Source: a virus
Reading direction: 5' to 3' (one strand)
Virus genome (UHGV): UHGV-1372088
Length of the DNA stretch: 64,000 bases
The notes below the pieces were generated by a model that saw nothing but the letters and a program-made list of their open reading frames with translations, was not told the origin of the DNA and did not search any database. Positions within the stretch are counted from its first letter, which is position 1. Each line of letters opens with the position of its first letter. Made by a program: the position numbers and the translations under genes. This document shows positions 3,357 through 54,670 of the stretch, piece after piece.

Positions 3357-3364
3357 TCAAATCA

Positions 3365-3388: not shown

Positions 3389-3400
3389 CGAGATAAAAGT

Positions 3401-26200: not shown

Positions 26201-26729
26201 GGGCGACATTGGTTCCTTCGCCATCAACATCGCACAGCACCGCACGCGTAAAGTGCCGAAGGCGACATGGCAATGGTTCGAGCTGGCCAGATTCCGTCGC
26301 CAGAGCTTCGACCAGGTGATCAACATTCGCGGCGGTCTATTGCAGACCGACAGCATCACCATCGACGGCGGCGCGAAACTCCGGGCGGGTATGTCGTATT
26401 CTTCCGGCGCAGATGGAGGCCTTAATCCAGGATTCCTGTCACACGCCATGTTGTTGCGTGCCACTGGCGCAACTTCTGGCGGCGGCAGCATGGAGATCGG
26501 CATTGAGCTTATGTACGAAACAGGTGGGTGGGACCGCCTGCTGACGGCACAAGGGGAGATGAACGTCGACAATATGTCGTTTGTTGTTCCAGCTGGCAGT
26601 GGGGATGCAGTTCTTCGTTATGGTTGTTATCTTGACCGTAACGGGCAAATGGTATTAACCATCCTTTCACGATTCGACGCTTTTTCGGCGCGGAATAACA
26701 ATGTAATTCGTGGATCGTCCACACCGTAA
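11217..26729 (+). CDS. giant central tail fibre / host specificity protein (lambda J-like N- and C-termini with about 10 inserted beta-sandwich + repeat-stalk modules)
   Basis: Uninterrupted 15.5-kb ORF (5170 aa); N-terminus resembles lambda gpJ; dozens of about 35-aa repeats (ADASALQTLQNTVTQQGKDI...SLNNSL.TTN.NVAKK); about 10 beta-rich domains each ending ..DDF.ViTDvTDA; C-terminus ADRFALINTS... J-like. Confidence 0.85.
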   Translation: MEQFKKRKLPEIIAGAGGKKSSGSSRTPVEADDTVNSNVKVSILDLLGEGVIGGLKDGAKSIFLNDLPLQNSDDTYNHSGVTWWFRDGSQDQSIIEGFDYTETPKTIGLQVKKTSAVTMAVDSDSADRFRVILKFPSLKSVDKKTGDTSGTSVTYKFQVSSAGGAFVDVAPEGESSGTVTLTAKKAGVYYRSYILNLPKPGSKYQVRVVRVTDDNKDTTYLANDIYVDTVGEIINTNMNYPNSALVGLRVNSEQFGSSMPSRSYLISGMKIRVPSNYDEVTNEYRGTWDGSFKLMSSSNPAWILYDLVTNKRYGLGEFVRESMFDLGQLYQIGRYCDALVDDGFGGKEKRFAINTQITTLQDAYRCVQDIAGAFRGMVYWAGGMVHVTQDSPSDPIAIYSNSNVIDGRFSYKGSARKDRPSVALITYNNKEDNYKQNIEYVEDLEAIERYGIRKTESVAFGCTSRGMAHRVGLWTLYTGRMESDVITFQTGMDSAFLVPGDVILIHDKFRAGRRNSGRVVASTANSITLDSTVDMTKAGTITFINAEGRMISRDILESGVVSKVTFKDAVNEADRPVADGIWVISQSDLKPLQARVVGVTQGEDGVGSTITCIQNNPSKYAAIDDGAVLIPQNTTVLDPTFSKPENLKITEGTYLSSPGNLNVSLTATWEGKSAEYWVSWRRSDAGNVSNWQTAKVNEEQFEVKPVAESGKYDFQVYGVSVSGRKTEILSTTYQVLGTMTPPGAPSSLTAVGDYRQIILGWSNPSSVDLDHIQIYASKTNDVTKATLLAKSTTTNFTHSGLEDSVTWYYWIRSANKRGMTSDWSSKLGTSAMTRDVLSFLQNKITESELAKDLLADIDSKAVAAEVDASIEDAKSEATAQVEAAKKEASSALSAAQVTLNNAINQEATDRNNAVADEAKQRSQAISAEADARTKAISDEAIARADAITKESDTRTRAMADEVTARNKAVADEAAARTKAVSDEAVARAKAVSDEVAARTKAVADEATARAKAISDEAAARATAISDSVAVEATARAKAIADSASSLSDKIEKEVTDRVKAVSDLDTKTANAISSESSSRIAAISDEAKTRADAILQEKNSRQAEIKNVSAQMQTANESLAQQISQVAAGTGEQFDSLKIWYFDAQTTEGWSGNKSAILSADGWIRSGNGVDAWLTSPAGLAIAGASYRFMKMRIRKVGNPVWEGAIRWITKSGDSFNNTNFITVSEPEYNAQGVATLTASDIKWNNDTVHQIRLDLSISTDDSNYIEVDWIAVGRPTPGAGMAALQDEKTARTNADAAEAASRSTLATQLRGSYDGTDITKLSSGLIFQEQQARVTADKVEATARQSLETKVNDSVSSINKSLDTLNTKDQAMASDITGLKSSLDDKADASAVQTLKATVEQQGSNISTQGQSITKLQGDLNTTNTNVGKKADQTAMTALQGTVTQQGKDIAAANSSISTLKSSLDTTNDAVAKKADATAVSDLSSRVSATEGSVSSQGDSIVQLNNSLSNALADSDASAKTPNNLIVNPSFERGMDGYIGASSLSTVVTVQIPHVGTKALKIDPGSSVSPGQYIDFVKGRTYEIGVWVKQVSGTTDNGQGNNKLRVGNSAGAPVFEVPFANLTIDWTKVSKRWKATETGSLPVTLSNYLTAGNRYFDDFYVIDVTDAVNIDASASAISSLQSTVTQQGKDISSQSTSIAGLNNSLNTTNENVAKKADSSAVQTLQNTVTQQGKDISAANSDITNLKGSLDATNDKVATKADASAMSDLASRVSQNEKGIATQSDSLTKLSNKVSSIDVGGVNLITNGDMSAAPVSLLSTTTSFKSFDRTVTADVRGMSVVTPRSITLSVWFKELSSGFGTTKPFTSVVIGKSAAGDNWGVRFYASNGSVSQKGDMFVWTGTINLKAGDTLFNDPTTIRFILEDKTQKTGAIFYRVKLENGNIATDWSASPDEVKSGLDANASALNALTTRVASTEGNVESQGNSITSLKNDLATTNANVSKKADSSAVATIQSTVTQQGKDIASSASDISSLKNSLATTDSNVAKKADASALQTLQNTVTQQGKDLTSVGNRATALENSLKTTNDNVATKADASALSTLQNTVSQHGDSIASQSDSITSLKNSVGSLVNMGDNLVQDSSFDNGGQTFRTQQNSGTSGSIVAFGAFGENSAGVRMVKVNGTSPGLFANGKLPVPVNGARKYRYIVRAKGVSGAMNMLLRRWNFNGNTEGAYEDKNNTLTTDWQTITWDTSFSPKDGVDGQSFGIYCHPNNGEIWIDSFQVFDITDATNNETTASALSNLSTTVSRQGETVTSQGTAITKLQNDLSSTKTDLAKKADASALQTLQSTVTDQGKTLTSQGDAITALNNTVNTVKGDVAKKADSSALQNLQSTVTQQGKDISTNASNITALTGNLATTNAAVATKADASALNNLTTRVTQNEKNISSQSDAVTKLSNTVSNIAVGSANLIPNSGTMEGWSDVISDTYRGNKVFSFTRKANSSSYVQSNEIVLAGPVDSDSYVYSFWAKAAKDGTVINAYFYNPSNTTGSETSQGVKGSSSDGSAAITLTTSWARYWVKWTHSPTTGTKRFIPARLNNSSTADQTVFISSPQLETGNVVTDWKAADSDFASASALSTLTSRVTSDEGVISSQGSAIADLKNSLATTNSTVATKADASALSSLQNTVTKQGTDLKSASDSITTLKNSIAATDANVAKKADASALQTLQSTVSTQGDKIASQGNSITSLGNSLDTVKGDVAKKADTTALNNLSTRVSNAEDKISSSSDAITSLNSSLNQQSKRGANILPDGTFESYSSGYNITNGRVIVTADDSHGGNKCIRVTRPNDYTNYTDNSDNHIFSGFQVRDNAVFYVECWVKLDAKSTTMDGSVQIAVGMSLQYQDNSWQWPALIKSAKDLSADTWTKVSGYLKSSKSGIKQAMVRISIPNVSTVKAGNSFLVDDFVITDVTDAYNAQQTADATASAVSTLQTTVSRQGDSITSQGDSITTLNNGLATANKAIGTKADASALSSLQNTVTQQGEDVAANTNNITALSNQVVNGKQDTWARRIYKCQLANAGTEPTFSDIQGLSPVFMDEVADAARMDFSGAGSYVVAHYKAMVRVAADTTISVSPGSRVFDDSGAVYVNGVRQAAALSGTAVLNFTLSAGWNTVEFLVNQWTGNAYVNLGFKLGDKVAELYSGLGVSSLSSALNSISSNVSKVGDQVSSNSTAITSLKNGLSDTNSTVAKKADASALQTLQNTVTQQGKDIASQSDSVTNLSNALSNVSIGGVNLIKNSGDMAGWSGKTNEIFRGNAVISATTKAGSSYRDLKEITLDAPVDNAEYVYSFFAKGGENGQSMTAYFYNPNSTISSVSSQGVSGGDVDGRMSFTLTTEWVRYWVKWKQKPGTGSKRLILARIQASSTKDQTVSITSPKLEVGNMPTEWSPAPSDMASSNDLSSLKTTVDANSGAIQSVTSRVQKTEDNISTQNTAITKLQGDLSTTNNLFSTKADSTALQTLSGRVDKTESSISTQNDAITKLNSSLDTTNKAVAKKAEQSSLDTLSGRVSSTENGITAANSSITSLNAAIRAENASSGDLITNPTFDPQYAQMGFTVVTTDTDGVPANCPFRYAAKLASRDHHPNFNAIVATLGDVFEISVLVACGAGNADFNLYLCTANGPTGGIGAPLYNGGNTKATSTWTRVTWKFTVSQAMVDKGYIRPFLQINQSSPFGTIWYVTDWHMRNITAASKAQDTANATSKAVDSLTSTVNQQGSDISSIGSRTTSLENGLSTTNANVSKKADSSALQTLQNSVTQQGNDISGQGSRVTSLENNLTAGANLIPNPAMLNGAQGWGGSETTVDGYAAVVSSSGWGPSSSYFQVTPGDIIDLSLMSQSAGAASISWGLRFDGPGLSNFCLYAPALTFAAGEKKSVSAAITVPAGATKAMFQASARATSARTVYNIIATRRDAGTKANSSAIDTLNSTVKTQGDTLSSIGSRTTSLENGLSSANSALSLKADASALSSLTNTVTQQGKDLDAAEANITAANTSITSMQASLTRRTVFTVTAKGNGNSANHGFFDESGKNLFTPGRSYALITFKANSDGSTVINTSKTYDVFGSANNGKAMSDDIAALANGVYVCVMTYDEPSGQRNSIASALELLGGTTEVINSLPYRGAYILLGRKGMKAGDGLELRAPTGGDSSAFISTSVEFVNGVMMGLGAAGGVMMKADANASAITTLQNTVKQQGDTIASSSSAITSLQNDMRTVNDNVSKKADASALQTLQNTVTQQGKDISTQSASLTQLNNSLSATNASIDASGKIPGNLIVNSSFERDKDGYTGWSSIASVIAASVPHSGSKILKLAAGGSVLVGQDVTYLKGRTYKIGAWAKQDSGTVIQAADNTKFRIADSTGLLASSVYGPFTSNWQEISFTWRPGKDVTAATQITAYLSAGAMYFDDFYVIDITDRVDLDATVSAVSGLTTRVSNAEGNISSQSDSITTLNNGLSTLNKTVSTKADATALSSLQNTVTQQGKDISSASGSITSLQSSLNTIKVQSNPWIDGTFETYDNNQQLGGSTAIVTTDFKNSGNKCLKVTRPANTSGNSDKTIGSYSAVRQSAKYRVEFWAMMPASEAPPSGWTVVVGLHSINKDGGNDWQGIAFDEAGLGGRDQWVKFTGVVKVSPSVTRSHVWISTRGQSGSNTPGYAVYIDDFVITDITDAADAQATADANATAISSLQTKVSDIDGKVTAQTSQLSSMQSKVDASSSKVDQLSKTISDSQSTQASLNTSLQSQIDAQASANIKNQADLNSAATSIATIKSTQSTQATQLSAIAKQQTDMTASLDNQSASIQTLQESVANNDSLKSTWMVKMETNSAGQKYAAGIALGVDGKSQQSQFLVQADRFALINTSNGNTTTPFVIDNGVTYMNAAYIKDGAITNAKIGGEIRSDNFVDGSQGWRVGKDGSSQFHNVVVRGHVEANSGSFRGAVYATDGWFQGTVYANRIEGDIGSFAINIAQHRTRKVPKATWQWFELARFRRQSFDQVINIRGGLLQTDSITIDGGAKLRAGMSYSSGADGGLNPGFLSHAMLLRATGATSGGGSMEIGIELMYETGGWDRLLTAQGEMNVDNMSFVVPAGSGDAVLRYGCYLDRNGQMVLTILSRFDAFSARNNNVIRGSSTP

Positions 26730-38831: not shown

Positions 38832-39263
38832 CGGTTTAGATATATAAGTGTTTACATACATGCTCGTAATGTATAAGATTGTTTTGTTTTCGGAGTGATG
38901 CGATTTTTGCGGAGTTTTAGAAACTGACCACAAAGATAAATGCAAACGATGATGTAGTTCTGATGGCGGCTTAATAGCCTATAAGTCAGTGAGGTCTTCC
39001 GATTCCTCATTAACAAATTCGGCGCACTGATCCGGTGTGATTAATAATGGATAGCGGAGACTTGCTGGTGAATAGGCGATACTGACCCACGTACCCTTAA
39101 CCACGCGATAGAGTCAGACGGCGAGTCTCTGCGAACATGGGTGATGGCCTTTTAGTTTGTCGATTAGCTGTGCATAGCGTCGGCGAGCGAAGTCTGGTGA
39201 CTTAAAGGTTTATTCCGATGCCTGATGTGTGAAATGCAAATAGCATATTTGAGGCTGAGGATT

Positions 39264-39291
39264 GCGGGTTCGATTCCCGCGTCACTCTCCC
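39264..39291 (+). other. isolated tRNA T-arm-like element (GCGGGTTCGATTCCCGC + acceptor-like tail), no matching 5' acceptor found
   Basis: Perfect GGTTCGATTCC T-loop consensus; followed by 15-bp inverted repeat CAGCTGTTTGGGTGG / CCGCCCAAACAGCTG at 39297-39375. Confidence 0.3.
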
Positions 39292-39703
39292 ACGTTTCAG
39301 CTGTTTGGGTGGTTAGGAGCATTTCCAATAACCATATCCCGGTTTCAGCCCGCAACTGACCGCCCAAACAGCTGCGTCGTGTGTGATTACTTAATGTCTC
39401 ATTTCATCTTGGGTTAATTTGAAATTGCGACGTAGCGCCTTTCTCAAAACATGAAGAGGGTTTTGAGAAAGTGCGTGCTTACGATCGGGCTTTCTTTTGC
39501 CATTGACAGTCTTCTTCAACGACTTGATATGTTGATCATAAGCCCAGCCGGGGGTGGCGTGATAACACCGGCTGATTGAGATGTTTGTCTAAGGAAGGAG
39601 ACTTTGGTATTGGTCTCCGATCTCACCTCCAGGCCATCGAATATGCCTCCGCTGTTTGGTGACAGGCTCAGTCCGTTCCCTCTTAACGATAAAAGAGGTG
39701 CAA

Positions 39704-39786
39704 GCAAACAAAGCAGTCTGGTTGACTGCGGCCGAGGAAGACGTCTTATCCGGCAGAGAGTGGTTAGATTCCGCTTGTTTGCGCCA
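39704..39786 (+). tRNA. tRNA-like gene (7-bp acceptor, D-arm, T-arm GGTTAGATTCC, encoded CCA; anticodon arm non-canonical)
   Basis: GCAAACA pairs TGTTTGC 7/7, D-stem GCAG/CTGC with GG in loop, T-stem AGTGG/CCGCT, discriminator G then CCA; anticodon region cannot be folded into a 5-bp/7-nt arm by hand. Confidence 0.35.
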
Positions 39787-39822
39787 ACCTAAAGGGCTTT
39801 TTCGAGAGTCCTTCAGATTGGA

Positions 39823-39899
39823 TACCCAATGCGACAAAACGGTAAGTCGAGAGGATGCTGAGTCCGATGATGCAGGTTCGAGTCCTGCTTGGGTGACTT
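39823..39899 (+). tRNA. tRNA-like element (acceptor, U8, D-arm, T-arm GGTTCGAGTCC; anticodon arm defective)
   Basis: TACCCAA/TTGGGTG acceptor pairing, D-stem CGAC/GTCG with GG in loop, T-stem GCAGG/CCTGC; no CCA; possible pseudo-tRNA. Confidence 0.3.
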
Positions 39900-40104
39900 A
39901 TCTAAGATGATGTGATTCCATACATCACTTAGTGTCGAGGTCTAAATGGTGCGGCCATCAACCGCGTAAACAGCCATTAGATCCGAGCCACAAGCCTCGT
40001 CTGGCACTAACGTAAAGTGCAAGTGACGTGAAATTCAGGCTGTACGGCCAGAAGAGTAGCGTCGCGAACCATAGATCAACTTCATAATTTAAAAGAGAAT
40101 ACAC

Positions 40105-40716
40105 ATGTCTGAAGTCAAGAAGGTCATTACCGTAGCTGAACGCTCCACCAAAACTCTGGTTAAAATCGTTGCTGATGGCCAGAAGGTGCTTGCTGAACTG
40201 GCCTCTATGGCTGATTCAAACGTTATTCTGGCCGAAGAGATTGAGTTTAAACAAGGTCAGCTGGCTGATATCGAAAACCAGATCGCCTCTACCGAGCGTG
40301 AAGCTAAAGCCCAGCTGCGTCTGCGTGTAATCGAAAACGAAGACAAAGTTCTGGCCGATCTGATGAAAGCGCGTGGCTATGCCGTCATCACCTTCTCTGA
40401 TCTGGATTCTCTGAACTCTGAACTGGTCGCGGCCAAAACCGATAACGAGTACGCAGTATCCGAAGCGCGTGAAGCTGGTTATCAGGCAGCAGCTGCTAAA
40501 TTTGGCGCAGAGAACCGTGAACTGGCATCCCAGCACAAAGTTGAACTGGCAGAGTTTAAGGCTCAGGCGGTTGCTAAAAACCAACGCATCTCTGACCTGG
40601 AAGCGCAGGTTTCCGAACTGCGTGGTCAGATCACCGCAGAGCGTGAAACTCGTCTGGAGATCGCTAAAGCTGATGCTGGTCGTGCAGGTGTGGTTGTGAA
40701 CGCCGGCAAGAACTAA
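40105..40716 (+). CDS. coiled-coil protein, Ala/Glu/Lys-rich
   Basis: 203-aa ORF with start context AAGAGAATACACATG, followed by two strong hairpins. Confidence 0.5.
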   Translation: MSEVKKVITVAERSTKTLVKIVADGQKVLAELASMADSNVILAEEIEFKQGQLADIENQIASTEREAKAQLRLRVIENEDKVLADLMKARGYAVITFSDLDSLNSELVAAKTDNEYAVSEAREAGYQAAAAKFGAENRELASQHKVELAEFKAQAVAKNQRISDLEAQVSELRGQITAERETRLEIAKADAGRAGVVVNAGKN

Positions 40717-40849
40717 TGTCGACTTGGCCTCTTCGGAGGCCATAGCCGAAAGACTGATTGCGATTGTTCTTTCGGCTGTGACTCGACCCATAGCAACTCC
40801 ATTGTATCGAGATAGACACGATAGAAACTTTTGTTCGCGCAAAAACCAA

Positions 40850-40873
40850 AGGAGCCGAAAGGCTCCTTTTTTG
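40850..40873 (+). terminator. rho-independent terminator
   Basis: AGGAGCCGAAAGGCTCCT hairpin + T6. Confidence 0.65.
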
Positions 40874-40887
40874 TATCAGGAGAAAGG

Positions 40888-41709
40888 ATGACCAGCAAAA
40901 CTATCAACCCACCGCTGAAGTGGCCAGGCGGGAAGCGAACCGTGATGGGGTTCATCAACCAACACTTCCCAGAGGGCCGGCGACTCATCGAGCCATTCGT
41001 CGGTGGCGGTTCCGTTTTCCTGAATGCCGGGTTTGACCGCAATCTACTGAATGACGTCAACCCGGATCTGATTAACTTTTACCGCCAGCTGGTGGCCGGT
41101 GGCGCCGGTTTCGTTGAAATGGCGAGAGAGCTGTTTTCCAAAAACAGTGAAGGCGAGTATTACGACATCCGTGAGAAATTTAGAGCGCGAGATTCTGCGC
41201 CGGATATTCAAGCAGCCTACTTCCTGTATCTCAACCGGCACTGTTTCAACGGGCTGGTCCGCTACAACCAGGCTGGTGCGTTTAATGTCGGGTATGGGAA
41301 ATACAAAGCGCCCCATTTCCCAGAGGCAGAGATGCTTGCGTTGATCCAGATGGCTGGCTTGCGAGAACTGGCGTTTGTTTGTGGCGACTTCGACAGTGTC
41401 ATAGAGGAAGCGGGGGATGGTGACGTTGTATTCTGCGATCCGCCATACGAACCCATGCCAGATAAAAATGGCTTCACAGCGTACTCAGGGGCGACCTTCA
41501 GCTTCGCGGACCAAGAGCGTCTGACTCGTCTGCTGATCGCGGCCACGGAGCGTGGGGCGCGTGTGATGATAACCAATAGCGGAGCGCCAAAGATTCTGGA
41601 GCTGTACCACAACAACGGATTCACGCAGCGCCGGTTATCCGCTCGTCGCTCCATCTCATGCTCAGATTCCGGGCGTGAGACGGTAAGTGACGTGTTGGCC
41701 ATTATTTGA
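40888..41709 (+). CDS. dam: DNA adenine methyltransferase (Dam/D12-class N6-MTase)
   Basis: N-terminal KWPGGK...EPFVGGGSVF (AdoMet-binding motif I) and catalytic DPPY motif; ATG 40888 with RBS AGGAGAAAGG. Confidence 0.8.
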   Translation: MTSKTINPPLKWPGGKRTVMGFINQHFPEGRRLIEPFVGGGSVFLNAGFDRNLLNDVNPDLINFYRQLVAGGAGFVEMARELFSKNSEGEYYDIREKFRARDSAPDIQAAYFLYLNRHCFNGLVRYNQAGAFNVGYGKYKAPHFPEAEMLALIQMAGLRELAFVCGDFDSVIEEAGDGDVVFCDPPYEPMPDKNGFTAYSGATFSFADQERLTRLLIAATERGARVMITNSGAPKILELYHNNGFTQRRLSARRSISCSDSGRETVSDVLAII

Positions 41710-41788
41710 AACACGAATATATGTAATGACATACATATGTGATAGCGGTATATTCCAGATGTCACTCATCAATTAAAGGGATTTTAAA

Positions 41789-42544
41789 ATGGGTTTACCA
41801 CGTAAGAAGGCTCGCAAAGCAGGGAAAGGGGATCACGCATTACGCGGTCGTCGCGCTGATTACATCATTGTCGATGATCTGGCAGACGTCCAGACCCCGC
41901 GCTCCAAGCGGGACAATACACCCATTGAAGCACGTAATGAGGCTCAGGGTCATTACCTGGCCAACATTCAAGCCAAGTCGCTAATCATCGCCACCGGCGA
42001 AGCCGGCTGCGGCAAAACGTTCCTGGCCACCGCGTATGCTGCGGACCGTCTGCTTGCGAAAGACGTCCAGCGCATTATTGTTACCCGCCCCGTACTGCAA
42101 GCTGAAGAAGATTTGGGCTTTCTTCCGGGTGATGTGGGTGAGAAGTTTGCCCCCTACTTCCGACCCGTCTATGACGTTCTCCAGAAGCGTCTGGGCGCGT
42201 CCTTCCTCGAATACTGTCTCAAGCCAGAAGTCGCCAAAGTAGAGATCGCCCCGTTCGCTTATATGCGTGGCCGGACGTTTGAGGACGCTGTGGTCATTCT
42301 GGATGAAGCGCAAAACGTTACACCGTCACAGATGAAAATGTTCCTGACCCGCATGGGCGAGAATGTCACCGTCATTGTGAACGGCGATGTGACACAGTGC
42401 GACCTTCCGTTGGAGATTGAGTCCGGTCTGGACGATGCTCTTCGCCGCTTCAAACCCAGCCGTGATGTGGGGATGGTCGAGTTCTCGTTAGAAGATTGCG
42501 TCCGCTCTGACCTCTGTAAAGTTGCACTAGATGCCTACCAGTAA
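41789..42544 (+). CDS. phoH: PhoH-like ATPase
   Basis: P-loop GEAGCGKTFLATAYA; PhoH-family length and downstream motifs. Confidence 0.75.
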   Translation: MGLPRKKARKAGKGDHALRGRRADYIIVDDLADVQTPRSKRDNTPIEARNEAQGHYLANIQAKSLIIATGEAGCGKTFLATAYAADRLLAKDVQRIIVTRPVLQAEEDLGFLPGDVGEKFAPYFRPVYDVLQKRLGASFLEYCLKPEVAKVEIAPFAYMRGRTFEDAVVILDEAQNVTPSQMKMFLTRMGENVTVIVNGDVTQCDLPLEIESGLDDALRRFKPSRDVGMVEFSLEDCVRSDLCKVALDAYQ

Positions 42545-42554
42545 GGAAACACAA

Positions 42555-43100
42555 ATGTCCAGAGTGGTATTGCCGAAATATCAAAGCATTAAAGTTGTGG
42601 AGGCGGCCAAGATTGCGAGAATCCACGGTCAGGTAATGCTGTTATCCTTCTGCAATCATGTAACACGCTCTGAATTGGGCCACGTTACCAAAGTTGAAGT
42701 AGAACAGAATTACATCGACAAACATCAGCCGCAAGTTGGCGGATATTACGTTCGTTACGAAGATGGATATGAGTCCTACTCACCACAAGACCCATTTGAA
42801 TCAGGTTATTTGCCGCTCGAAACCGCTATCCATGCCGCCAAAGTCGGTGCATCTTTTGGTATTGCGATCGAGATGCTGAAAGACGGCCATCGCGTCGCTC
42901 GCAAAGGCTGGAACGGCAAAGGTATGTTCTTGCGCATGGTGTCAGGCAAACAGTACGACGTCGCTTGCGGCATTGCTCGTGATCTGGAGCTGGCGCCCTG
43001 GATTGGGATGAAAACAGCGGACGATAAGTTTGTTCCCTGGCTGGCCAGCCAGAGCGATATGCTGGCTGAGGATTGGGTGATTGTGGAGGTCGCTAAATGA
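42555..43100 (+). CDS. hypothetical protein (KGWNGKG motif, DUF2829-like)
   Basis: 181-aa ORF; RKGWNGKGMFL motif recalled from a phage-associated domain of unknown function. Confidence 0.4.
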   Translation: MSRVVLPKYQSIKVVEAAKIARIHGQVMLLSFCNHVTRSELGHVTKVEVEQNYIDKHQPQVGGYYVRYEDGYESYSPQDPFESGYLPLETAIHAAKVGASFGIAIEMLKDGHRVARKGWNGKGMFLRMVSGKQYDVACGIARDLELAPWIGMKTADDKFVPWLASQSDMLAEDWVIVEVAK

Positions 43101-43342
43101 AAGACCAGCACACCAAAATCAAAGGCTATCGTGATCTGTCGGCTGAGGAAATCGCGCTGATGAACGAAGGCAAAGAGCTGGCCCAGAAAGTCGGCGAGTT
43201 CGTTGAGAAGCTGGAGCGTGCTGAGTTTGCCAAAACTGGCGATGAAGTACCGGACAAACGCTGGCTTGCCATCGGTAAAACCGACCTGCAAAAAGGCTTT
43301 ATGTCTGTGATCCGCAGCATCGCAAAACCAACAACTTTCTGA
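43097..43342 (+). CDS. small hypothetical protein
   Basis: 81 aa, start overlaps previous stop. Confidence 0.35.
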   Translation: MKDQHTKIKGYRDLSAEEIALMNEGKELAQKVGEFVEKLERAEFAKTGDEVPDKRWLAIGKTDLQKGFMSVIRSIAKPTTF

Positions 43343-43349
43343 GGCTGAG

Positions 43350-43568
43350 ATGACTCCAGAACAATTTGCATATTGGTTACAAGGGTTCGTCGAGCTCAAT
43401 GGCCAGCAACCGACTGACGCGCAGTGGGACAGCATTAAAGAGCACCTGCAAACCGTGTTTAAAAAGGTGACGTCGTCCGTGCCGCCTACAGGTCCAGTCC
43501 CTCGTGGTGGCCTGGAGCAGCTTCGTGGCTCGGCACTTGATCAAACTCTCTTATCATTATCTTGCTAG
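43350..43568 (+). CDS. small hypothetical protein
   Basis: 72-aa ORF. Confidence 0.35.
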   Translation: MTPEQFAYWLQGFVELNGQQPTDAQWDSIKEHLQTVFKKVTSSVPPTGPVPRGGLEQLRGSALDQTLLSLSC

Positions 43569-43576
43569 GAAAACGC

Positions 43577-43825
43577 ATGAAAATTACCATCTACGGTAAA
43601 GAAGACTGTTCATACTGCAAACGTGCGGTTGAGCTCTCCAAACAGCTTATCGAACGTGGTTGCGCGGATTCGTACACCTACTTCAACATCGTCGAAGAGG
43701 GGTTCGACGCGGCGACACTCAGTATTATTTTGGGCCGACCGGTCCGAACCGTTCCGCAGATCCTTGTCGATGGGGTCGCCATCGGCGGGTATACGGAACT
43801 GGCCACACTCGCTACAACGCTTTAA
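43577..43825 (+). CDS. glutaredoxin/NrdH-like redoxin
   Basis: MKITIYGKEDCSYCKRA: CxxC active site in the classic glutaredoxin N-terminal context; 82 aa. Confidence 0.7.
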   Translation: MKITIYGKEDCSYCKRAVELSKQLIERGCADSYTYFNIVEEGFDAATLSIILGRPVRTVPQILVDGVAIGGYTELATLATTL

Positions 43826-43831
43826 GTCACA

Positions 43832-43860
43832 AAGGCCCGGTCTAACCGGGCCTTCTTCTC
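43832..43860 (+). terminator. rho-independent terminator
   Basis: AAGGCCCGGTCTAACCGGGCCTT hairpin then CTTCTCC. Confidence 0.6.
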
Positions 43861-43943
43861 CCCGCACCGCCTTCCTCAATTTGTAGACACGAACGCAAAA
43901 AGAGATTAAATTAGCTCTAAATTTAGAGTTAATCGGAGGTTTT

Positions 43944-44195
43944 ATGTTCACTGAAACGGTACTGGCCAAACGCACATCGTCTATTAGCGAGTTCAAGAAG
44001 AACCCGTCCGCCGCAATGAGTGAGTCGCATGGCGAGCCTGTCGCTGTCCTGAGCCACAACAAGCCGGCCTTTTACTGCGTCCCACCTGCTCTGTTTGCCC
44101 TCATGATGGACCAGATTGGCGACCAGCTCCTTCTGGATAAGGCTATGTCTCGACTGGATGATGATGAGGTGGAAGTCACCCTGGATCAGCTTTAA
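43944..44195 (+). CDS. Phd/YefM-family antitoxin
   Basis: 83 aa; ...SISEFKKNPSAAM...EPVAVLSHNKPAFYCVP matches the Phd/YefM antitoxin fold signature; acidic C-terminus; immediately upstream of toxin with TAATG overlap. Confidence 0.6.
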   Translation: MFTETVLAKRTSSISEFKKNPSAAMSESHGEPVAVLSHNKPAFYCVPPALFALMMDQIGDQLLLDKAMSRLDDDEVEVTLDQL

Positions 44196-44518
44196 TGGGC
44201 GACAATTTTACAACAAAGCTGACGTTCAAAAGGCTTGCTCTGGCCGAGTGGGAGTCGCTATCCACACCCATAAGGGATAAGTTCAAGAAGGTTTTGGCTA
44301 AGCGTCTGGAGTCACTGGATTCGCTGACGATGCCGAAAAATAGGCTCTCTCTTCAGCATAATTGCTACAAGATTAAGCTGAAGAACGACGGCTATCGTTT
44401 GGCCTATACGGTAAAAAATGACGAGTCCGGCACCGTCACCGTCGTAGTAACTGTCGTTGCGGTGGACCGCCGTGATGAAATTTACAATGAGTTGAAAAAG
44501 AGACTTAATGACGAATAG
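44195..44518 (+). CDS. RelE/ParE-family toxin
   Basis: 107 aa; C-terminal ...CYKIKLKNDGYRLAYTVKND...VTVVVTVVAVDRRDEIY matches the RelE/ParE pattern (yRirvGdyRviY...ilrighRkdvY). Confidence 0.6.
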   Translation: MGDNFTTKLTFKRLALAEWESLSTPIRDKFKKVLAKRLESLDSLTMPKNRLSLQHNCYKIKLKNDGYRLAYTVKNDESGTVTVVVTVVAVDRRDEIYNELKKRLNDE

Positions 44519-44558
44519 AGAACGGGAAAATAAACCCGCTCTGGGCATAAGGCAGAAC

Positions 44559-44867
44559 ATGACCACCGAAGAAATGCGCGACTTCCTTTTGCAAAACAAC
44601 TTTATGCGCGTCAGACAGCTGGAGGATGGAAGTTGGATCGGCACGATGAAGTTGATGTTCACCACGTCAGTTTGCATGGACATCGATGAGCTTTCCCCCT
44701 TCCGCTATCGCTGGTGCTTCGCGGACCCGGAGGAAGCGAATCACTTCTTTGATACGGCAGTCGACTTTGACGAAGTTCCGACTCGTCGAACGTCACTGAA
44801 AGGACACCGGTATCGGGGAGAGCCTTTGCTGCGCGAAAAAGACGAATTTGGATTTGATAAATGGTAG
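44559..44867 (+). CDS. hypothetical protein
   Basis: 102-aa ORF from ATG 44559. Confidence 0.35.
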   Translation: MTTEEMRDFLLQNNFMRVRQLEDGSWIGTMKLMFTTSVCMDIDELSPFRYRWCFADPEEANHFFDTAVDFDEVPTRRTSLKGHRYRGEPLLREKDEFGFDKW

Positions 44868-44903
44868 GCGCAAGCCTGCCAGAATCCACCATAACCCACC
44901 TTC

Positions 44904-44934
44904 TTGATTCCATACTTATATAGTATGGAATCAA
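44904..44934. promoter_or_regulatory. perfect 31-bp palindrome (13-bp arms TTGATTCCATACT, 5-bp AT spacer) 60 bp upstream of recombinase gene; candidate recombination site or operator
   Basis: TTGATTCCATACTTATATAGTATGGAATCAA read directly; arms are exact reverse complements. Confidence 0.55.
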
Positions 44935-44993
44935 AGGTAAAATGAAGCTATATTTGGCATCATCCTGCCACCCATTTCCTATCAGGGAGCGTT

Positions 44994-46016
44994 ATGAGCC
45001 TCGACCTCGATCACCAAAAAGCCATCGAAAACAGTTCAGTTGAGACAGTCGCCTATCTGGAACAGTGTCGGGCGATGTCCGGCAAGCAGCTGCTGGACGC
45101 CCCGGACGAAATGACATTTGAGATGGGCTTCCGCATTTTCACCAGGCTTTCACTTCTCGTCACCCGGCGCCGGCCGGAGATAGCGGTCCACTGTGTCCTG
45201 ATTCACATCATGCCGATGTTGCAATCAAAACAAATTGCCGCCATAAAGCGATCCGACATTAACAAAATCATAAATGGCCTGGTGCTGGACGGCAAGATTG
45301 TCCAGAGCCGACGAGTCTTTTCTGTTATGAAACAGTTCCTTAGCTGGTGCGAGTTCCAGGGCCACATCGAGACGTCGCCCCTGGCGTCCATCTCGCTAAA
45401 TAAGGTTGCCGGCGGCGTTCGCATGAAGCCGAGAGAGCGGATCTTGAGCGACGAAGAGATAAACCTGTTCTGGACGATGTGGGATTTGGCCGACGTTGAC
45501 GACTGCACCAAGTGGGCCGCCCGCCTCATTCTCTGTTCAGCCAGAAGACCGGATGAGGTGCTAAGGGCCAGGCGCAGTGAGTTCGATCTTGATAGAGATG
45601 TATGGAATCAGGGTACGCGCAACAAGTCCGCAAGACGACACACACTCCCCATAAGTCCAATTATGAGGGAGTGTATTGAGTCATTGTTTTTGGCCGGAGG
45701 TAACAGCGAGTGGCTGGTTCCGTCAAAAAGAAGGGAGGGCAATCCGGTATCCAAAGTGCTGATTTCTCAGGCATCACGTCGGATACAGGGATTGTCCTAC
45801 AGTGGATTTAATGAACCTTTTGAGATTCGAGACTTAAGGCGCACAGCCAGAAGTGCGTTTTCGCGCCTTAAGATCTCTCAAGAGGTAGCACGACAAATTA
45901 TGAATCACTCGCCAGAAGGTCTGGATAACGTATACAACAAGCACGACTACTTGGATGAAATGGCCGAAGCTATGTTGAAATATTCAACCTTTTTAAGAAG
46001 TTGCATTAAAGGGTAG
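44994..46016 (+). CDS. int: tyrosine site-specific recombinase/integrase
   Basis: 340 aa; C-terminal catalytic region ...RDLRRTARSAFS...IMNHSPEGLDNVYNKHDYLDE (R..HxxR...Y pattern of tyrosine recombinases). Confidence 0.75.
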   Translation: MSLDLDHQKAIENSSVETVAYLEQCRAMSGKQLLDAPDEMTFEMGFRIFTRLSLLVTRRRPEIAVHCVLIHIMPMLQSKQIAAIKRSDINKIINGLVLDGKIVQSRRVFSVMKQFLSWCEFQGHIETSPLASISLNKVAGGVRMKPRERILSDEEINLFWTMWDLADVDDCTKWAARLILCSARRPDEVLRARRSEFDLDRDVWNQGTRNKSARRHTLPISPIMRECIESLFLAGGNSEWLVPSKRREGNPVSKVLISQASRRIQGLSYSGFNEPFEIRDLRRTARSAFSRLKISQEVARQIMNHSPEGLDNVYNKHDYLDEMAEAMLKYSTFLRSCIKG

Positions 46017-46386
46017 ACTTCAGACGCTCTATCTCCGCCGTCAACTCTTCTTTGGATTTCTTCAGTAGTTCGTTTTCTTTACGGAGTGCGTCGAGGTCTG
46101 CCTCGAACTTCTTCACCATCTTCTCTTCACGGGTGGCGAAGTGGTTGAAAATGGCAGGCTCGCGTTCTTCCAGAACCATCATCATAAATTTGTGGCCGTT
46201 GATTCCAGTTGCATAGGCAAATGGAAGGACGCGGTCGAATGATAGATGTGTTTTCCCGGCCTTGATAATTGAGAGAGTGTTTACGTTGGGGAACCCCACT
46301 TCAGTCGCTATTTGACCTTGTGTTTTTCCAGAGTCGATTATAGCCGCATCCATGAGGGGGCGGTATTTGCCGATATCTACTGTCAT
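46006..46386 (-). CDS. HTH (XRE-type) transcriptional regulator with C-terminal coiled coil
   Basis: 126-aa minus-strand ORF; TQGQIATEVGFPNVNTLSII helix-turn-helix; leucine-heptad C-terminus; convergent on recombinase, facing an AT-rich 340-bp non-coding region. Confidence 0.55.
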   Translation of the reverse strand: MTVDIGKYRPLMDAAIIDSGKTQGQIATEVGFPNVNTLSIIKAGKTHLSFDRVLPFAYATGINGHKFMMMVLEEREPAIFNHFATREEKMVKKFEADLDALRKENELLKKSKEELTAEIERLKSTL

Positions 46387-46724
46387 TTAATTCACCTTTT
46401 CGATGATATTTGAAGTTTGCTGCTTGTTTGTTGTTCTATGAGAATATCTTAACTAAGTAAGTACATACAATATAGCACAGATAAATATACAGATACACAG
46501 CATAAAAACAAGTTAAGGTCATCGCCTCAATAACTACTTGTTTAGGTAGGTTTTTTTAACTTGACAACCATCAAGGCCAGTAACAATCTTTTACAAAATG
46601 GCAGAATTATGTCAAAAATGTGAATTTATTAACTTAAGAATATTCCTTTTATTGTAATTGCAGAGTATATTCACGCTTATATTTTTGATAGATGTGAGAC
46701 TTACAGGGATAAGGTTTTTGAAAT

Positions 46725-46946
46725 ATGCAAGATACAATCAATTCGCTGGAAAATTTGAAGGTTATGACCTCCCTTATCCTTTCGCGGGAGGTGGCGGCAA
46801 CACTAAGTGTTGATTATCAATTCACCCCTATCAACGAGCAATGTCAGGATCTTCTGGCCTCTGTTCTGACGTCCGGCGACAAGAAGTTCGCGGTCATGCA
46901 GCACCCCATCAACAGCACCCTGGCCATCATCTACCGCTTCGTTTAG
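46725..46946 (+). CDS. small hypothetical protein
   Basis: 73-aa ORF in otherwise non-coding AT-rich region. Confidence 0.25.
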   Translation: MQDTINSLENLKVMTSLILSREVAATLSVDYQFTPINEQCQDLLASVLTSGDKKFAVMQHPINSTLAIIYRFV

Positions 46947-47030
46947 TACGCCCCCTTACTTTGATCGTTGAGTGCCGCTGTAAGATGTTTATACTTAGTT
47001 TATAAGTAAACACTTACAGAGGCATTAGAT

Positions 47031-49097
47031 ATGGCAACCGCGCAGCAAGTATCCATTTTCCGTGACGCAATTAAGAAAGTAACAACCATCCTTGCTGGTA
47101 AAGACTTGCCTGTCATTGAGCGTGGGCGAAAAGCCTATGTTCGATATCACAACGACGAGCCCGTCGAAATCTGCATCCCATCCATACCGGATGACGCAAG
47201 CGAGAAGTTCATGGAGGCGATTCGTGGATTTGTCGATCATGAAGTCGCGCACATACTTTTCACCGACAACAAGGCCATCACGGCAGCCACTGGCGGGAAG
47301 AAGATTAAGGCGTTTTTCATCCTGAATGCGGTAGAGGACGTCTTCATTGAAAAGAAGATGTCGAAGCTGTTTGCCGGTTCCAACGCCAACCTCATCGCCA
47401 CCCGTCGTCACGTCATTGAGGACGTTTTCACGCCTCGCTTACGCGATGCTCTGGCCCAGAGTGCAGATGAGGTCCAGCTGTTCCGTAACTTCTTCCTTGT
47501 GCCAGCGCTACGTTCGTGGGGCGGCCAGTTGGACTTCATCTCCTTCATGGAGGAGCACGGAAAGCATGTAGGCGAAGTCTGCGCTTTCCTTGAAGGCAAA
47601 GGTATTCGCGCTGATATTGAGAACCTGGATAAGAGTCTCGATTCGCTGGCGCTCGCCGGAAAAATCACCAAGTGGCTCAATGAGTTTTCGGATCTGAAAG
47701 AGAAAGACGAACCAGAAAAAGAGAAGTCCGAGGCGAAAGAAAAGCCTGAAGAATCGGAGGAAGAAGCCGAGGAAGATCAGCCAGACGAAGAAGTTGAAGA
47801 TGCTGATGAGGGCGACGAAGAGGTTGGCGAAGACGAAGACGAAGATGAATCCGAAGCCGAAGATGCTGACGAAGACGCTGACGAAGCCGAAGACGCTGAC
47901 GAAGCCGAAGAGGGTGACGAAGCCGAAGAGAGTGACGAAGCCGAAGAGAGTGACGAAGCCGAAGAGAGTGACGAAGCCGAAGACGCTGACGAAGCCGAAG
48001 AGGATGATCTGCCTTCTCTCATCGACGCTCTTATGAAAGCTGAAAGCAGCGATGGTGATGATCTGTCTATCGAAAAGGCGCTGAATGAAATCATGGGCAT
48101 TGAGGAAGTGATGTCCACTGAAGACAAAAGCTACCGCCCTTTTGAGCGCACTAGCGACTATATGGGGCCTCTGGAAGACGCAGACGCCTTTATGCGAAAA
48201 GTATTTGGAGACCCAGAGAACAGCCGTCTGTACGTGGCTCCATATGGCGTTGAAGGCTATAAAATTGAGGACGACGAGAGATGTCTTCGTACCTTTTCTC
48301 GGATCGGCAAAAAAATGGACGCAGGTGATGATACCGCAGCGGCGATAGCCAAAGACCTGGAACGCGCCATCGCATCCAAAAACAGGACCATGTTTATCCC
48401 CGGCCAAAAGAAAGGGAAGGTTCATGGGCCGAGTCTGTATCGCCTCAACATGAATGATGACCGCGTGTTCCGCCAGAAGGACGAGAAGCGAGCGGTTAAT
48501 GCGTGTGTGCAGCTGGCGATCGATATGTCGGGCTCAATGTCGGGCGAGCGCATCCATATGGCGGCAATGGCAGCATATACGATGGCAAAGGCGCTGGATG
48601 CCATCAAGGTTCCTTGCATCGTTACTGGCTTCACCACTGGCACAATGCCAAGAGGGAGTTGGCATAACGAGTCCACCAGCAGACCCTTCACACGATTTGA
48701 ATCGCTTTTCCTTCCTATCCTGAAAGGATGGAATCGCAAGGCAGACTCTCTGGAAACTCGTCGTAATTTGGGCCACGTTATGAAAGGCGTACCACTGCTC
48801 AACAATGTCGACGGTGAAAGCATTCGCTCTCTTTCGCGTCACTTCAATGATCGCAAAGAGGACCGCAAGATAATGATTGTGCTCAGCGACGGTGAACCAC
48901 ATGCAGTTGGTCGCGGATTCGCCAACGACTTGAGGAAAGCGGTTGGCGACATTGAGCAAACTGGCATCGACCTGTATGGCGTGGGCATCCAGACCACTGC
49001 ACCAAAAAGGTTCTACACAAAGTCGGTCGTTATCCACAATCTGCCAGACCTTGGCAAAGAATTAATCAGACTGATTGCGGGATCTCTGATCGAGTAA
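47031..49097 (+). CDS. CobT-like protein: N-terminal domain, 110-aa poly-acidic tract, C-terminal vWA domain
   Basis: 688 aa; aa 215-330 almost entirely D/E/A/S with tandem DEAEES repeats; C-terminal MIDAS motif DMSGSMSGER; paired with downstream AAA+ gene. Confidence 0.65.
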   Translation: MATAQQVSIFRDAIKKVTTILAGKDLPVIERGRKAYVRYHNDEPVEICIPSIPDDASEKFMEAIRGFVDHEVAHILFTDNKAITAATGGKKIKAFFILNAVEDVFIEKKMSKLFAGSNANLIATRRHVIEDVFTPRLRDALAQSADEVQLFRNFFLVPALRSWGGQLDFISFMEEHGKHVGEVCAFLEGKGIRADIENLDKSLDSLALAGKITKWLNEFSDLKEKDEPEKEKSEAKEKPEESEEEAEEDQPDEEVEDADEGDEEVGEDEDEDESEAEDADEDADEAEDADEAEEGDEAEESDEAEESDEAEESDEAEDADEAEEDDLPSLIDALMKAESSDGDDLSIEKALNEIMGIEEVMSTEDKSYRPFERTSDYMGPLEDADAFMRKVFGDPENSRLYVAPYGVEGYKIEDDERCLRTFSRIGKKMDAGDDTAAAIAKDLERAIASKNRTMFIPGQKKGKVHGPSLYRLNMNDDRVFRQKDEKRAVNACVQLAIDMSGSMSGERIHMAAMAAYTMAKALDAIKVPCIVTGFTTGTMPRGSWHNESTSRPFTRFESLFLPILKGWNRKADSLETRRNLGHVMKGVPLLNNVDGESIRSLSRHFNDRKEDRKIMIVLSDGEPHAVGRGFANDLRKAVGDIEQTGIDLYGVGIQTTAPKRFYTKSVVIHNLPDLGKELIRLIAGSLIE

Positions 49098-52998: not shown

Positions 52999-53082
52999 AC
53001 AATACAATAAGTAAAGCTGTAAACAATGTAATTAGTAGCGCAGTAAACAAGGTGTTTGCTGCGTCACATGGAGAAAATACAC

Positions 53083-54252
53083 ATGAAAGTCGCAAAAATA
53101 GTGTCCGAAAGACCGGGCTTGTCAGAAGAGAAGGCCAAAGAGATCTGGGACGCATTCGAGAAGTTCGGCGGCTATGGGTTTAACAAATCTCACTCCGCCG
53201 CCTATGCCACCATCTCCTACCAAAGCATGTACATGAAGGTACACCATCCGGCAGAGTTCTTTGCGGCCGCGCTATCCATTCTCGGCGAAGACAAACACCA
53301 GGCGATAGTGAAGGACGCGGCAACTTATGGCGTTCGCGTCATGCCGCCGGACGTCAACATTTCAAGCGGACGCATCGAAATCGGAAAGCTGCCTTCTGGC
53401 CAGATAGCGTTATTCGCCCCCTTCTCTTCCGTTAAAGGTTGCTCGGACAACGGATGCGCTGCCATCGTGAATGCGCGGCAGAAGGTCGGTGGGAAGTTCG
53501 AAACCTATGAGCAGTTTGAGATGGCCGTGGAGAAACGAGCCTGTAATGCTCGCATACGTGAAGGACTGATGCGCGTCGGGGCGTTCGCTTCCATTCAGCC
53601 AGGCACATTGCCGGCAGACGCTGAAGACCGCAAGAAGGATCAGGCGGAGTTGATGGGTAGTCTCTTTACCGGCACCGTGAAGATCGGTCGCGTGTTCGAG
53701 TCGACGCCACGGAAGACGGCGGAGCTGTCCGTTCTGATGGAAGAGATGCGCAGCAAGCTGGGCCTGGGCGAGAGTATGGTGACGCCATACATCGGCCTGA
53801 AGCCAAAGGTCATGATCATCCTGAACAACGCCAATGGCAGTGATGCCAAGAGCGGCATATTCATGAATAAGGGGTATGAGGACTTCAAGGGGCGCATTGC
53901 CAACACTCTGGGTCTCCGTATGGGCGATCTTTACGTCACTGGCGTCATGAAGCGAGCAAAGGGGAAGGATGAGCAGTACACCAAGGATGAAGAGGAAGTG
54001 TTTATCGAAGGTATGCGTCGTGAAATCGAGATCATGAACCCAACATACATCCTTGCGTGTGGAGCTTACGCTTCAAGGCTGTTTAACGAGAAGGACAAGA
54101 TGGGTGATTTGACTGGTCGCAAAGAGTATTTCGCGGACAAAGACTTCACCGTCTTCCATGCTTTCACACCGGGCGTCCTTCACTTCCGCCCGGAGGAAGG
54201 TGAAAAGCTGGATGAAATTTTGAAAGATCTCTGCGACGCGATTGAAGGCTAA
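53083..54252 (+). CDS. dnaE: DNA polymerase III alpha (DnaE-type), C-terminal fragment
   Basis: FEKFGGYGFNKSHSAAYATISYQSMYMKVHHPAEFFAAA matches DnaE ...EKFAGYGFNKSHSAAYA...HYPAEF; separated from N-fragment by TAA + 84 nt containing a promoter-like motif. Confidence 0.75.
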   Translation: MKVAKIVSERPGLSEEKAKEIWDAFEKFGGYGFNKSHSAAYATISYQSMYMKVHHPAEFFAAALSILGEDKHQAIVKDAATYGVRVMPPDVNISSGRIEIGKLPSGQIALFAPFSSVKGCSDNGCAAIVNARQKVGGKFETYEQFEMAVEKRACNARIREGLMRVGAFASIQPGTLPADAEDRKKDQAELMGSLFTGTVKIGRVFESTPRKTAELSVLMEEMRSKLGLGESMVTPYIGLKPKVMIILNNANGSDAKSGIFMNKGYEDFKGRIANTLGLRMGDLYVTGVMKRAKGKDEQYTKDEEEVFIEGMRREIEIMNPTYILACGAYASRLFNEKDKMGDLTGRKEYFADKDFTVFHAFTPGVLHFRPEEGEKLDEILKDLCDAIEG

Positions 54253-54364
54253 CGCAACTACCAAAATCCGCCTTAATTCAGCGCTTTACCCCCTTCCCCA
54301 CTGAGATAAAATCTACCAAACAACGAAACTACTTGTTTGGTAGATAACTCGTAAGGCAGTCAAA

Positions 54365-54670
54365 ATGAAAAAAACTCTGGTCGGTTTATTGCTTCTGGTT
54401 CCAGCGGCCGCGTTCGCTGAATGCACCACCGTGGGTGAATACACATCTTGCATGTACATCGACGGCAACCATGTTCGCCAGGTGACAACCGGACCTGGCG
54501 GCCAGCGTATCGAGCAAAATACGCGACTCAATTCTGACGGCAGCATCGACGGCTACACGACGGGCGACTTGGGTGATCACACCACCTCTATCCGCCGGCT
54601 TCCTGATGGCAACACCATGATCAAGACTGACGGCAAAACGCAGATCTGCAACGAGCTTAAATGCTACTGA
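54365..54670 (+). CDS. secreted small Cys-containing protein (moron candidate)
   Basis: Signal peptide MKKTLVGLLLLVPAAAFA; 4 Cys in mature part; own terminator (54677-54698). Confidence 0.55.
   Translation: MKKTLVGLLLLVPAAAFAECTTVGEYTSCMYIDGNHVRQVTTGPGGQRIEQNTRLNSDGSIDGYTTGDLGDHTTSIRRLPDGNTMIKTDGKTQICNELKCY

Follow-up and report, generated by a model that had tools for sequence, protein, structure and literature searches.

The 64,000-nt stretch of viral DNA analysed here (virus genome UHGV-1372088, hereafter the window) is part of an SSU5-like Klebsiella phage-plasmid of about 110 kb and carries, 59 nt ahead of the ATG of a tyrosine recombinase gene (int), a palindrome that is conserved together with this gene. 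We consider it probable that the two form a self-contained plasmid multimer-resolution module, which would work in the manner of Cre/loxP with a protein of a P4-like integrase lineage. Directly supported are the family, fold and catalytic residues of the protein, the observation that site and gene are strictly adjacent, conserved and change together, and their restriction to plasmids; from these we infer recombination, binding, the cleavage positions and the role in resolution. The two partners are as follows:

44904-44934, no strand assigned: candidate core recombination site, with left arm TGATTCCATAC (44905-44915), spacer TTATATA (44916-44922) and right arm GTATGGAATCA (44923-44933).
44994-46016, + strand: int, encoding a 340-aa tyrosine recombinase with a helical N-terminal/core-binding part and a catalytic domain.

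The palindrome and the adjacent recombinase gene

The palindrome ahead of the recombinase gene, first reported in the original prediction, is real; it reads TTGATTCCATACT-TATAT-AGTATGGAATCAA and its 13-nt arms are perfect. Simulating the window 200 times with a first-order Markov model gives a chance expectation of 0.03 per 64 kb for perfect inverted repeats whose arms reach at least 13 nt and whose spacer does not exceed 12 nt; two were observed (44904-44934 and 54311-54345). When up to 3 mismatches are allowed, the pattern of two 11-nt arms around seven free positions (11-N7-11) is found at a single place in the window and in none of 100 shuffles, and the window holds one full site.

Related loci were gathered from IMG/VR by protein alignment only (80 loci), by a pattern scan of 185,579 species genomes (7 loci) and from several plasmids; in IMG/VR a query with the single protein returned no related loci, whereas the alignment query did. 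The exact site TGATTCCATAC-N7-GTATGGAATCA is present in 93 of the 95 loci, that is in all 93 loci of recombinase clade 1, always 75–130 bp upstream of the recombinase start codon. The arms are invariant at every one of the 80 loci retrieved through protein homology alone, with clade-1 recombinases that are just 53–64% identical to that of the window and with diverged flanks around the site. In 18 diverse representatives all 22 arm positions reach 2.0 bits of information, against an average of 0.89 in the spacer and 0.7–0.9 in the 20-nt flanks. Escherichia phage Cyrano and Klebsiella phage pJN2-26, for instance, have the arms of the window upstream of the gene, around a different centre.

Judged from these alignments, what is conserved is a 7-bp spacer flanked by two arms of 11 (locally 12) bp. 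The lox/dif-like 13-5-13 geometry that had been proposed describes the window itself, where the 13-nt arms are perfect, and not the homologous sites, which show a conserved 11-7-11 arrangement; the window looks like 13-5-13 because the spacer TTATATA has complementary ends, and the outer T/A pair (44904/44934) adds local symmetry to the core site. Read in gene orientation, the spacer takes 11 forms in clade 1, among which three pairs are exact reverse complements (TTATATA/TATATAA, CTATAGA/TCTATAG and CTATTAA/TTAATAG). The corresponding loci are the window (44916-44922) and L014/L016, L018 and L017, and L032 and L008/L030, with colinear flanks in two of the pairs. The 7-bp centre appears to have flipped several times between perfect arms, which would be neutral for a resolution site. 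Among pairs of loci with the same spacer, 174 share at least 200 nt downstream and fewer than 40 nt upstream of the site, and the reverse pattern is found in 2. On the right flank (positions +7 to +17, 44940-44950), diverse loci keep a run of A at +7 to +10 and, invariantly, TA at +16/+17; loci without a LexA-controlled promoter (see below) are among them, and the segment may be an additional binding or bending element.

A second clade of recombinases (clade 2, 42–49% identity) is found in Pantoea, Rahnella, Xenorhabdus, Providencia and Erwinia, with the arms TGACTCCAGAC-N7-GTCTGGAGTCA lying 84–173 bp upstream of the gene. The two loci of 95 without the exact clade-1 site are Pantoea and Rahnella megaplasmids that carry these clade-2 arms, and the clade-2 genes of Xenorhabdus, Providencia and Erwinia have the same arms around five different 7-bp spacers. 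Compared to clade 1, 2 of the 11 arm positions are altered, in concert on both arms, and a mixed-arm intermediate, TGACTCCAGAC-TTATTAG-GTATGGAGTCA, exists at one metagenomic locus. The spacer length is 7 in all 99 sites of both clades, with arms of 11 (locally 12–14) bp. The copies of Xenorhabdus and Providencia are in phage-plasmid contexts, with a helix-turn-helix (HTH) gene and a CobT-like gene alongside; those of Pantoea, Rahnella and Erwinia are on non-phage megaplasmids with unrelated neighbours (H-NS, ovoA, transporters). Because the megaplasmid neighbours are unrelated, the palindrome has no constant partner other than the recombinase, and we therefore argue that the arms would be recognised by the recombinase rather than by the HTH protein, a partition protein or an initiator.

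The int product matches PF00589 over residues 172–318 (30.7 bits, cut-off 27.1) and PHROG 1 'integrase' (4e-38), with a weaker match to a phage-integrase central domain. Alignment with lambda Int places the catalytic residues at R185, K211, R279-x-x-R282, H305 and Y314, positions that are invariant or nearly so in a 28-member alignment (H305 in at least 90%). Five of the six residues of the catalytic set R-K-H-R-H/W-Y are canonical. The histidine of the HxxR box is replaced by arginine (R279, within RDLRRT), invariantly in the family, where the nearest outgroup integrases read HDLRRT. The initial reading of the protein as a tyrosine recombinase is thus upheld by both family matches, while the signature quoted for it, R...H..R...Y, is only approximate since the box reads RDLR.

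A Pfam search of the recombinase gave no hit to the arm-binding domain PF13356 or to any other arm domain. Outside its own family the protein is closest to P4/SXT-type integrases (about 30% identity), which do have PF13356, and ~75 N-terminal residues of the outgroup integrases have no counterpart in it. The AlphaFold model (pLDDT 88) has an all-helical N terminus and superposes best on residues 75–356 of lambda Int (TM-score 0.72, normalised to the target), followed by Tn1549 Int, XerH, XerA and IntI; with Foldseek, the E value is about 0.02–0.1 for Cre and 5e-8 for lambda Int. A sequence search of solved structures returned no Cre chain, lambda Int being the closest. Taken with the model, the sequence describes a two-domain tyrosine recombinase without an arm-binding domain. 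On Escherichia albertii plasmid p3RM15115 (62 kb, locus L094), the recombinase gene (3001-4020) is unannotated and apparently frameshifted around the VWNQG codons, with an intact core site upstream; probably the plasmid has been shortened and its recombinase gene is now a pseudogene.

Distribution, promoter and additional half-sites

The region is 97–99% identical to four Klebsiella plasmids of 104–114 kb that are typed as non-mobilizable; no phage record matches it at near-identity, and the element is represented among plasmid records only. One of the four, CP056499, carries phage portal, terminase, capsid, tape-measure and tail genes and also encodes a RepB-family initiator, ParB-family proteins and nucleotide-metabolism genes. 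Its sole annotated site-specific recombinase is the counterpart of int. The recombinase of the window is 55–57% identical to those of Cyrano, pJN2-26 and similar ~110-kb phage-plasmids; Cyrano is an SSU5-like phage-plasmid present at ~5.5 copies per cell (PMC9928086).

The recombinase gene was found at 936 places in 932 plasmid records, nearly all with one copy per record, and 899 of these records are typed as non-mobilizable plasmids. Most of the plasmids bearing the gene are 100–115 kb in size and come from Klebsiella, Escherichia, Enterobacter, Yersinia, Salmonella and Citrobacter, distant copies (43–47% identity) lie on 260–720-kb plasmids of Pantoea and Rahnella, and a 108-kb contig of Yersinia pestis has both the gene and the site. 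Among 5,426 complete E. coli genomes, 252 have the gene (254 places) along with the site (472 places), in every case on a plasmid and never on a chromosome. The site was searched for at blastn-level similarity with a 63-nt query containing the Cyrano version, and the 472 places amount to two per record because the palindrome matches on both strands. In the 185,579 species genomes, there are seven exact full sites, every one beside int. A chromosomal partner (attB), the search for which the original prediction had put forward as a check, was thus found neither in the E. coli genomes nor, as an orphan full site with both arms exact, in the species genomes (one genome per species). Fusion at the site was considered for two oversized plasmids (246 kb and 188 kb) and rejected, as the site is intact in both.

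In 88 of the 93 clade-1 loci, a sigma-70-like promoter (TTGATC/TTGACC, 17 nt, TAATAT/TAAATA) lies between the site and the ATG, and a LexA-box-like TACTGT-N8-ACAGT follows immediately 3' of it (L002 ~2949-2968; L003 2953-2972). The site is ~25 nt ahead of the -35 hexamer in these relatives. The window (44935-44993), its close relative and three Chimaeribacter loci are without the promoter/LexA segment, and the gap between site and ATG is about 60 nt in the window and its close relative versus about 92–101 nt in the others. No promoter was predicted between the site and the int ATG in the window, and a promoter/terminator scan around the palindrome returned nothing at the site; in this lineage int is probably read through from an upstream toxin-antitoxin operon, across the site. 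In Klebsiella pneumoniae p187-1 (246 kb, L102), a group II intron with an ltrA reverse transcriptase/maturase (~540-2470) sits directly after the LexA-box palindrome and before the recombinase ATG, the core site being intact 2 kb upstream.

The exact 11-mer arm occurs four times in the window, with ~0.7 copies expected at up to one mismatch. Two copies form the palindrome; the other two, one within int (45600-45610) and one at 39913-39923, share the longer form TGATTCCATACATC:

45597-45610, - strand: half-site TGATTCCATACATC inside int, ~690 bp downstream of the core site, reading GAT GTA TGG AAT CA in the sense direction (codons D-V-W-N-Q).
39913-39926, + strand: orphan half-site TGATTCCATACATC, which follows tRNA-Gln (39823-39897) at a distance of 16 nt and precedes int by 5 kb.

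The internal half-site is exact in 45 of 93 clade-1 loci, and xTA TGG AAT CA is retained in 11 of 12 diverse non-Chimaeribacter representatives with V, L or I as the first codon; only 1% of the codon columns with a conserved amino acid are codon-invariant. Upstream copies were found in at least 32 loci, in the same orientation throughout and 1.3–5 kb before int (L002, L008, L041, L043, L056, L062 and others). They fall in two homologous loci, in which the flanks are ~74% identical and the 14-mer is unchanged. An origin of the upstream copies as relics of an inverted int fragment, considered for a short AAGATCGAA resemblance, was rejected, BLAST of the 300-nt flanks giving no int homology. The extra half-sites look to be under selection. 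Clade 2 has no matching internal half-site, and no co-variation of this half-site with the arms is seen; the missing counterpart weakens, without removing, the case for a functional internal half-site. We consider it rather unlikely that the recombinase also recognises the TGATTCCATACATC half-sites (one in its own gene and one or two 1.3–5 kb upstream by the tRNA cluster) as working parts that form a nested inverted pair around the core; if true, the system would be more than a Cre/loxP analogue. With recognition beyond the palindrome, the half-sites could act as one-arm secondary crossover sites in the manner of the Rci shufflon, as long-range accessory sites imposing a resolution-only topology, or as operators over phage-plasmid genes.

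Proposed mechanism and alternatives

On the model of Cre/loxP, XerCD/cer and further simple tyrosine recombinases, the palindrome at 44904-44934 would be a core site made of two inverted binding arms of 11–12 bp, each bound by one recombinase protomer, and a 7-bp asymmetric crossover spacer, from which alone the site would take its polarity. Homologous recombination would fuse two plasmid copies, whereupon the directly repeated sites of the dimer would synapse and Tyr314 would cut at the spacer borders. Strand exchange via a Holliday junction would then convert the dimer into monomers for the partition system to segregate. Drift or flipping of the spacer would cost nothing in such a scheme because both sites in a dimer are always identical. 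Multimer resolution, which the original prediction already preferred to chromosomal integration, is the function suggested by the invariant site (93/93), the concerted arm change, the free spacer, the plasmid-only copies in E. coli and the lack of an orphan full site.

Several points weigh against resolution as the role of the pair. Throughout the family, arginine stands in the aligned sequences for the usual histidine of the HxxR box. The LexA box before the gene in most relatives suggests a role in the SOS response or in prophage induction, for which simple housekeeping resolution has no need. Conserved single half-sites 0.7–5 kb away do not belong in a Cre-like scheme, and the break in homology at the left arm could simply reflect a variable gene-insertion region. 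The attB search covered exact arms (species genomes) or blastn-level similarity (E. coli only), with no collection of Klebsiella chromosomes. Finally, all functional steps, from binding and recombination to the multimer phenotype, are inferred.

The alternative that survives best, although we regard it as improbable, is a main role in the phage cycle, either in circularising injected terminally redundant DNA or in processing replication products after SOS induction. Circularising injected DNA is the second role of Cre/loxP. The LexA box over the int promoter in those 88 clade-1 loci would suit such a role, and so would the 39-fold induction of Cyrano by ciprofloxacin (PMC9928086). Nevertheless, the module is kept on non-phage megaplasmids, and it is kept in the window lineage without a LexA-controlled promoter. 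A phage-cycle role in addition to resolution is possible.

Less probable still is that the palindrome serves only as an operator, at which the recombinase as an autorepressor, or some other dimeric protein, would control transcription into int with no strand exchange. The site is found a short distance ahead of the int promoter in the relatives and, in the window, on the read-through path from the upstream operon; the single half-sites elsewhere would fit a DNA-binding regulator, and the His-to-Arg change in the catalytic box might mean reduced catalysis. However, the other catalytic residues, including the tyrosine nucleophile, are invariant in 28 diverse members, which would be surprising if the protein were no more than a repressor; invariant arms enclosing 7 bp of constant length and unconstrained sequence are the hallmark of a crossover region; and megaplasmids on which neighbours and promoters differ have retained the module. 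Autoregulation and recombination are mutually compatible.

We give very little credence to an attP/integrase pair that would insert the phage-plasmid into the host chromosome, as the 'site-specific integrase' label implies. This function would agree with the P4/SXT-type integrases being the nearest outside relatives (~30% identity), with lambda Int as the closest solved structure and with the presence, on the element, of a half-site that is 16 nt away from a tRNA gene. Against it stand the E. coli copies, since all gene (254) and site (472) places are on plasmids, and the lack of an orphan full site in the 185,579 species genomes. Moreover, each of the 11 spacer variants, which occur among related elements of overlapping host genera, would need a matching attB. 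Perfectly symmetric arms and a protein without an arm-binding domain also speak against integration, and the same module is present on 260–720-kb non-phage megaplasmids and in a set of records typed, for 899 of 932, as non-mobilizable plasmids. Finally, a hairpin of RNA or single-stranded DNA that would terminate or stabilise the transcript of the upstream operon independently of the recombinase is very improbable: the predicted transcript hairpin is very stable (-27.9 kcal/mol over 86 nt, z = -6.4) and follows the stop of ORF (open reading frame) 44508-44867 by 37 nt, but there is no U-run on either strand, the terminator scan is empty there, an Rfam scan of 38900-47100 found no family at the palindrome (only a tRNA and sub-threshold hits were returned), the arm sequence itself is conserved over 93 loci, beyond pairing, while the loop varies, and the upstream gene differs in identity and orientation among relatives, being on the opposite strand in Cyrano and pJN2-26.

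The proposed resolution module resembles Cre/loxP, as well as Dre/rox, Vika/vox and Panto/pox, in that a recombinase without an arm-binding domain is borne by a phage-plasmid next to a perfect inverted repeat with a short asymmetric spacer; plasmid multimer resolution would be common to Cre/loxP and to the pair in the window. Unlike Cre, the recombinase has RxxR instead of HxxR, and it shows no detectable sequence relationship to Cre and a weak fold match. Cre of P1 acts in plasmid multimer resolution (PMC7969092), and loxP is organised as 13-8-13 (PMC10250229), whereas the site studied here has 11–12-bp arms and a 7-bp spacer. Published screens for Cre-type sites would miss it because they demanded 13–15-bp arms and an 8-bp spacer (PMC10250229).

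P4/SXT- and lambda-type integrases are the closest relatives in sequence (~30%) and among solved structures. A 7-bp overlap region is typical of them. Unlike these heterobivalent integrases (lambda, P4, SXT), the family described here is without PF13356, has symmetric core arms and gave no chromosomal partner site or copies. XerCD sites have arms of about 11 bp and a central region of 6–8 bp; XerCD is a host-encoded heterodimer acting on two different arms, in contrast to the one plasmid-encoded protein and two identical arms of the window, and the site is unrelated to dif in sequence. The accessory motifs of TnpI, DR1 and DR2, lie in a compact site of ~116 bp, whereas the extra half-sites of the window are 0.7–5 kb from the core. 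ResD/rfsF of plasmid F and Rsd/crs of Salmonella virulence plasmids are further plasmid-encoded tyrosine recombinase systems dedicated to multimer resolution; neither ResD nor Rsd is among the sequence or structure matches of the recombinase, no direct comparison having been made. Multimer resolution by tyrosine recombinases is described for XerCD at dif/cer-type sites (PMC5357621), and TnpI/IRS of Tn4430 is a system in which a simple tyrosine recombinase is used for resolution, with extra recombinase-binding motifs outside the core (PMC2847244).

Surveys of phage-plasmids count tyrosine recombinases as persistent genes in the SSU5 group and mention dimer resolution as a general possibility (PMC7969092), and phage-plasmids have been described as typically without integrases (PMC12977533). 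In the searchable literature we found no description of the site by element names, function or literal arm sequence, subscription-only papers on pMT1, pHCM2 and SSU5-like plasmids being outside this scope. Among the large plasmids of Enterobacterales, SSU5-like phage-plasmids and related elements rank with the commonest, and some SSU5-like elements carry resistance genes (PMC9600943). Their gene is routinely annotated as 'integrase'; a defined 29-bp target and a role in plasmid maintenance would resolve the mismatch with the description of phage-plasmids as typically free of integrases. The pair offers a directly testable stability determinant for SSU5-like elements. Two natural specificities (TGATTCCATAC and TGACTCCAGAC), a natural intermediate and variable 7-bp spacers form a ready system for the study of recombinase-site co-evolution, and may provide orthogonal recombination tools outside the Cre family.

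Regulator and neighbouring genes

The genes and intergenic region on either side of the site and of int are the following:

43944-44195, + strand: Phd/YefM antitoxin gene, upstream of int and on the same strand.
44195-44518, + strand: ParE/RelE toxin gene, upstream of int and on the same strand.
44508-44867, + strand: gene of a PHROG 24748 protein, upstream of int and on the same strand, with its stop codon 37 nt before the palindrome.
46006-46386, - strand: HTH-type regulator of 126 aa, convergent with int (the 3' ends overlap by 11 nt), with a coiled-coil-like C terminus.
46387-46724, no strand assigned: AT-rich intergenic region of 338 bp, GC 0.29 versus ~0.5 around it.
46725-46946, + strand: 73-aa ORF without a family match; relatives have a 70–73-aa ORF at the same position.

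The genes at 43944-44867 belong to a variable region, which extends as far as the left arm. On the other side, the opposite-strand regulator is a real gene and matches PHROG 8 'transcriptional regulator' (1.5e-7), but the XRE-type label first given to it is less secure, the Pfam HTH families giving no hit in the window protein even at E<=5 and sub-threshold matches to HTH_19/HTH_3 in homologues (HTH_19 at 8e-4 for a 46%-identical homologue). The protein is 46% identical over 71 aa to the Cyrano 'putative repressor' CYRAN_45, which is expressed in the Cyrano lysogen (PMC9928086).

The AT-rich non-coding region beside the regulator is present as predicted. The AAACAAGTT/ACTTGTTT half-sites proposed within it correspond to a genuine 8-bp inverted repeat, AAACAAGT (46506-46513) and ACTTGTTT (46536-46543), but they are not conserved: AAACAAGT/ACTTGTTT is absent from the equivalent regions of relatives. 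A GTAAGTA-type motif lies near the start of the regulator in several relatives as well as in the window (46443-46466; L003 ~4505-4525; L002 ~4515-4535; L093 ~4350-4400), as a perfect palindrome GGTAAGTACTTACC in pJN2-26 and as two tandem TTTAGTAAGTAA copies in L093. This motif is a better operator candidate than the one originally proposed.

Beyond the AT-rich region a rightward operon comprises the 73-aa ORF, a CobT-like gene and an AAA ATPase gene, and the CobT-like VWA protein (47031-49097, + strand) contains a long acidic DE-rich repeat. The second perfect palindrome with 13-nt arms, ATCTACCAAACAA-CGAAACTAC-TTGTTTGGTAGAT at 54311-54345, is located between ORF 53056-54252 and ORF 54365-54670 and is not followed by a T-run. 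A perfect palindrome with 12-nt arms, CTTTCTCAAAAC-ATGAAGAGG-GTTTTGAGAAAG (39439-39471), lies within the non-coding stretch 38946-40104, which also contains the tRNA-Gln and tmRNA-like fragments that score sub-threshold. A sub-threshold Rfam match to the Yersinia small RNA Ysr251 (42346-42539, - strand; 47.6 bits versus a gathering score of 100) is antisense to the 3' end of a phoH-like gene. Finally, the tail region holds a single ORF of 5,170 aa (11217-26729, + strand), at which a relative annotates a DUF1983 tail protein.

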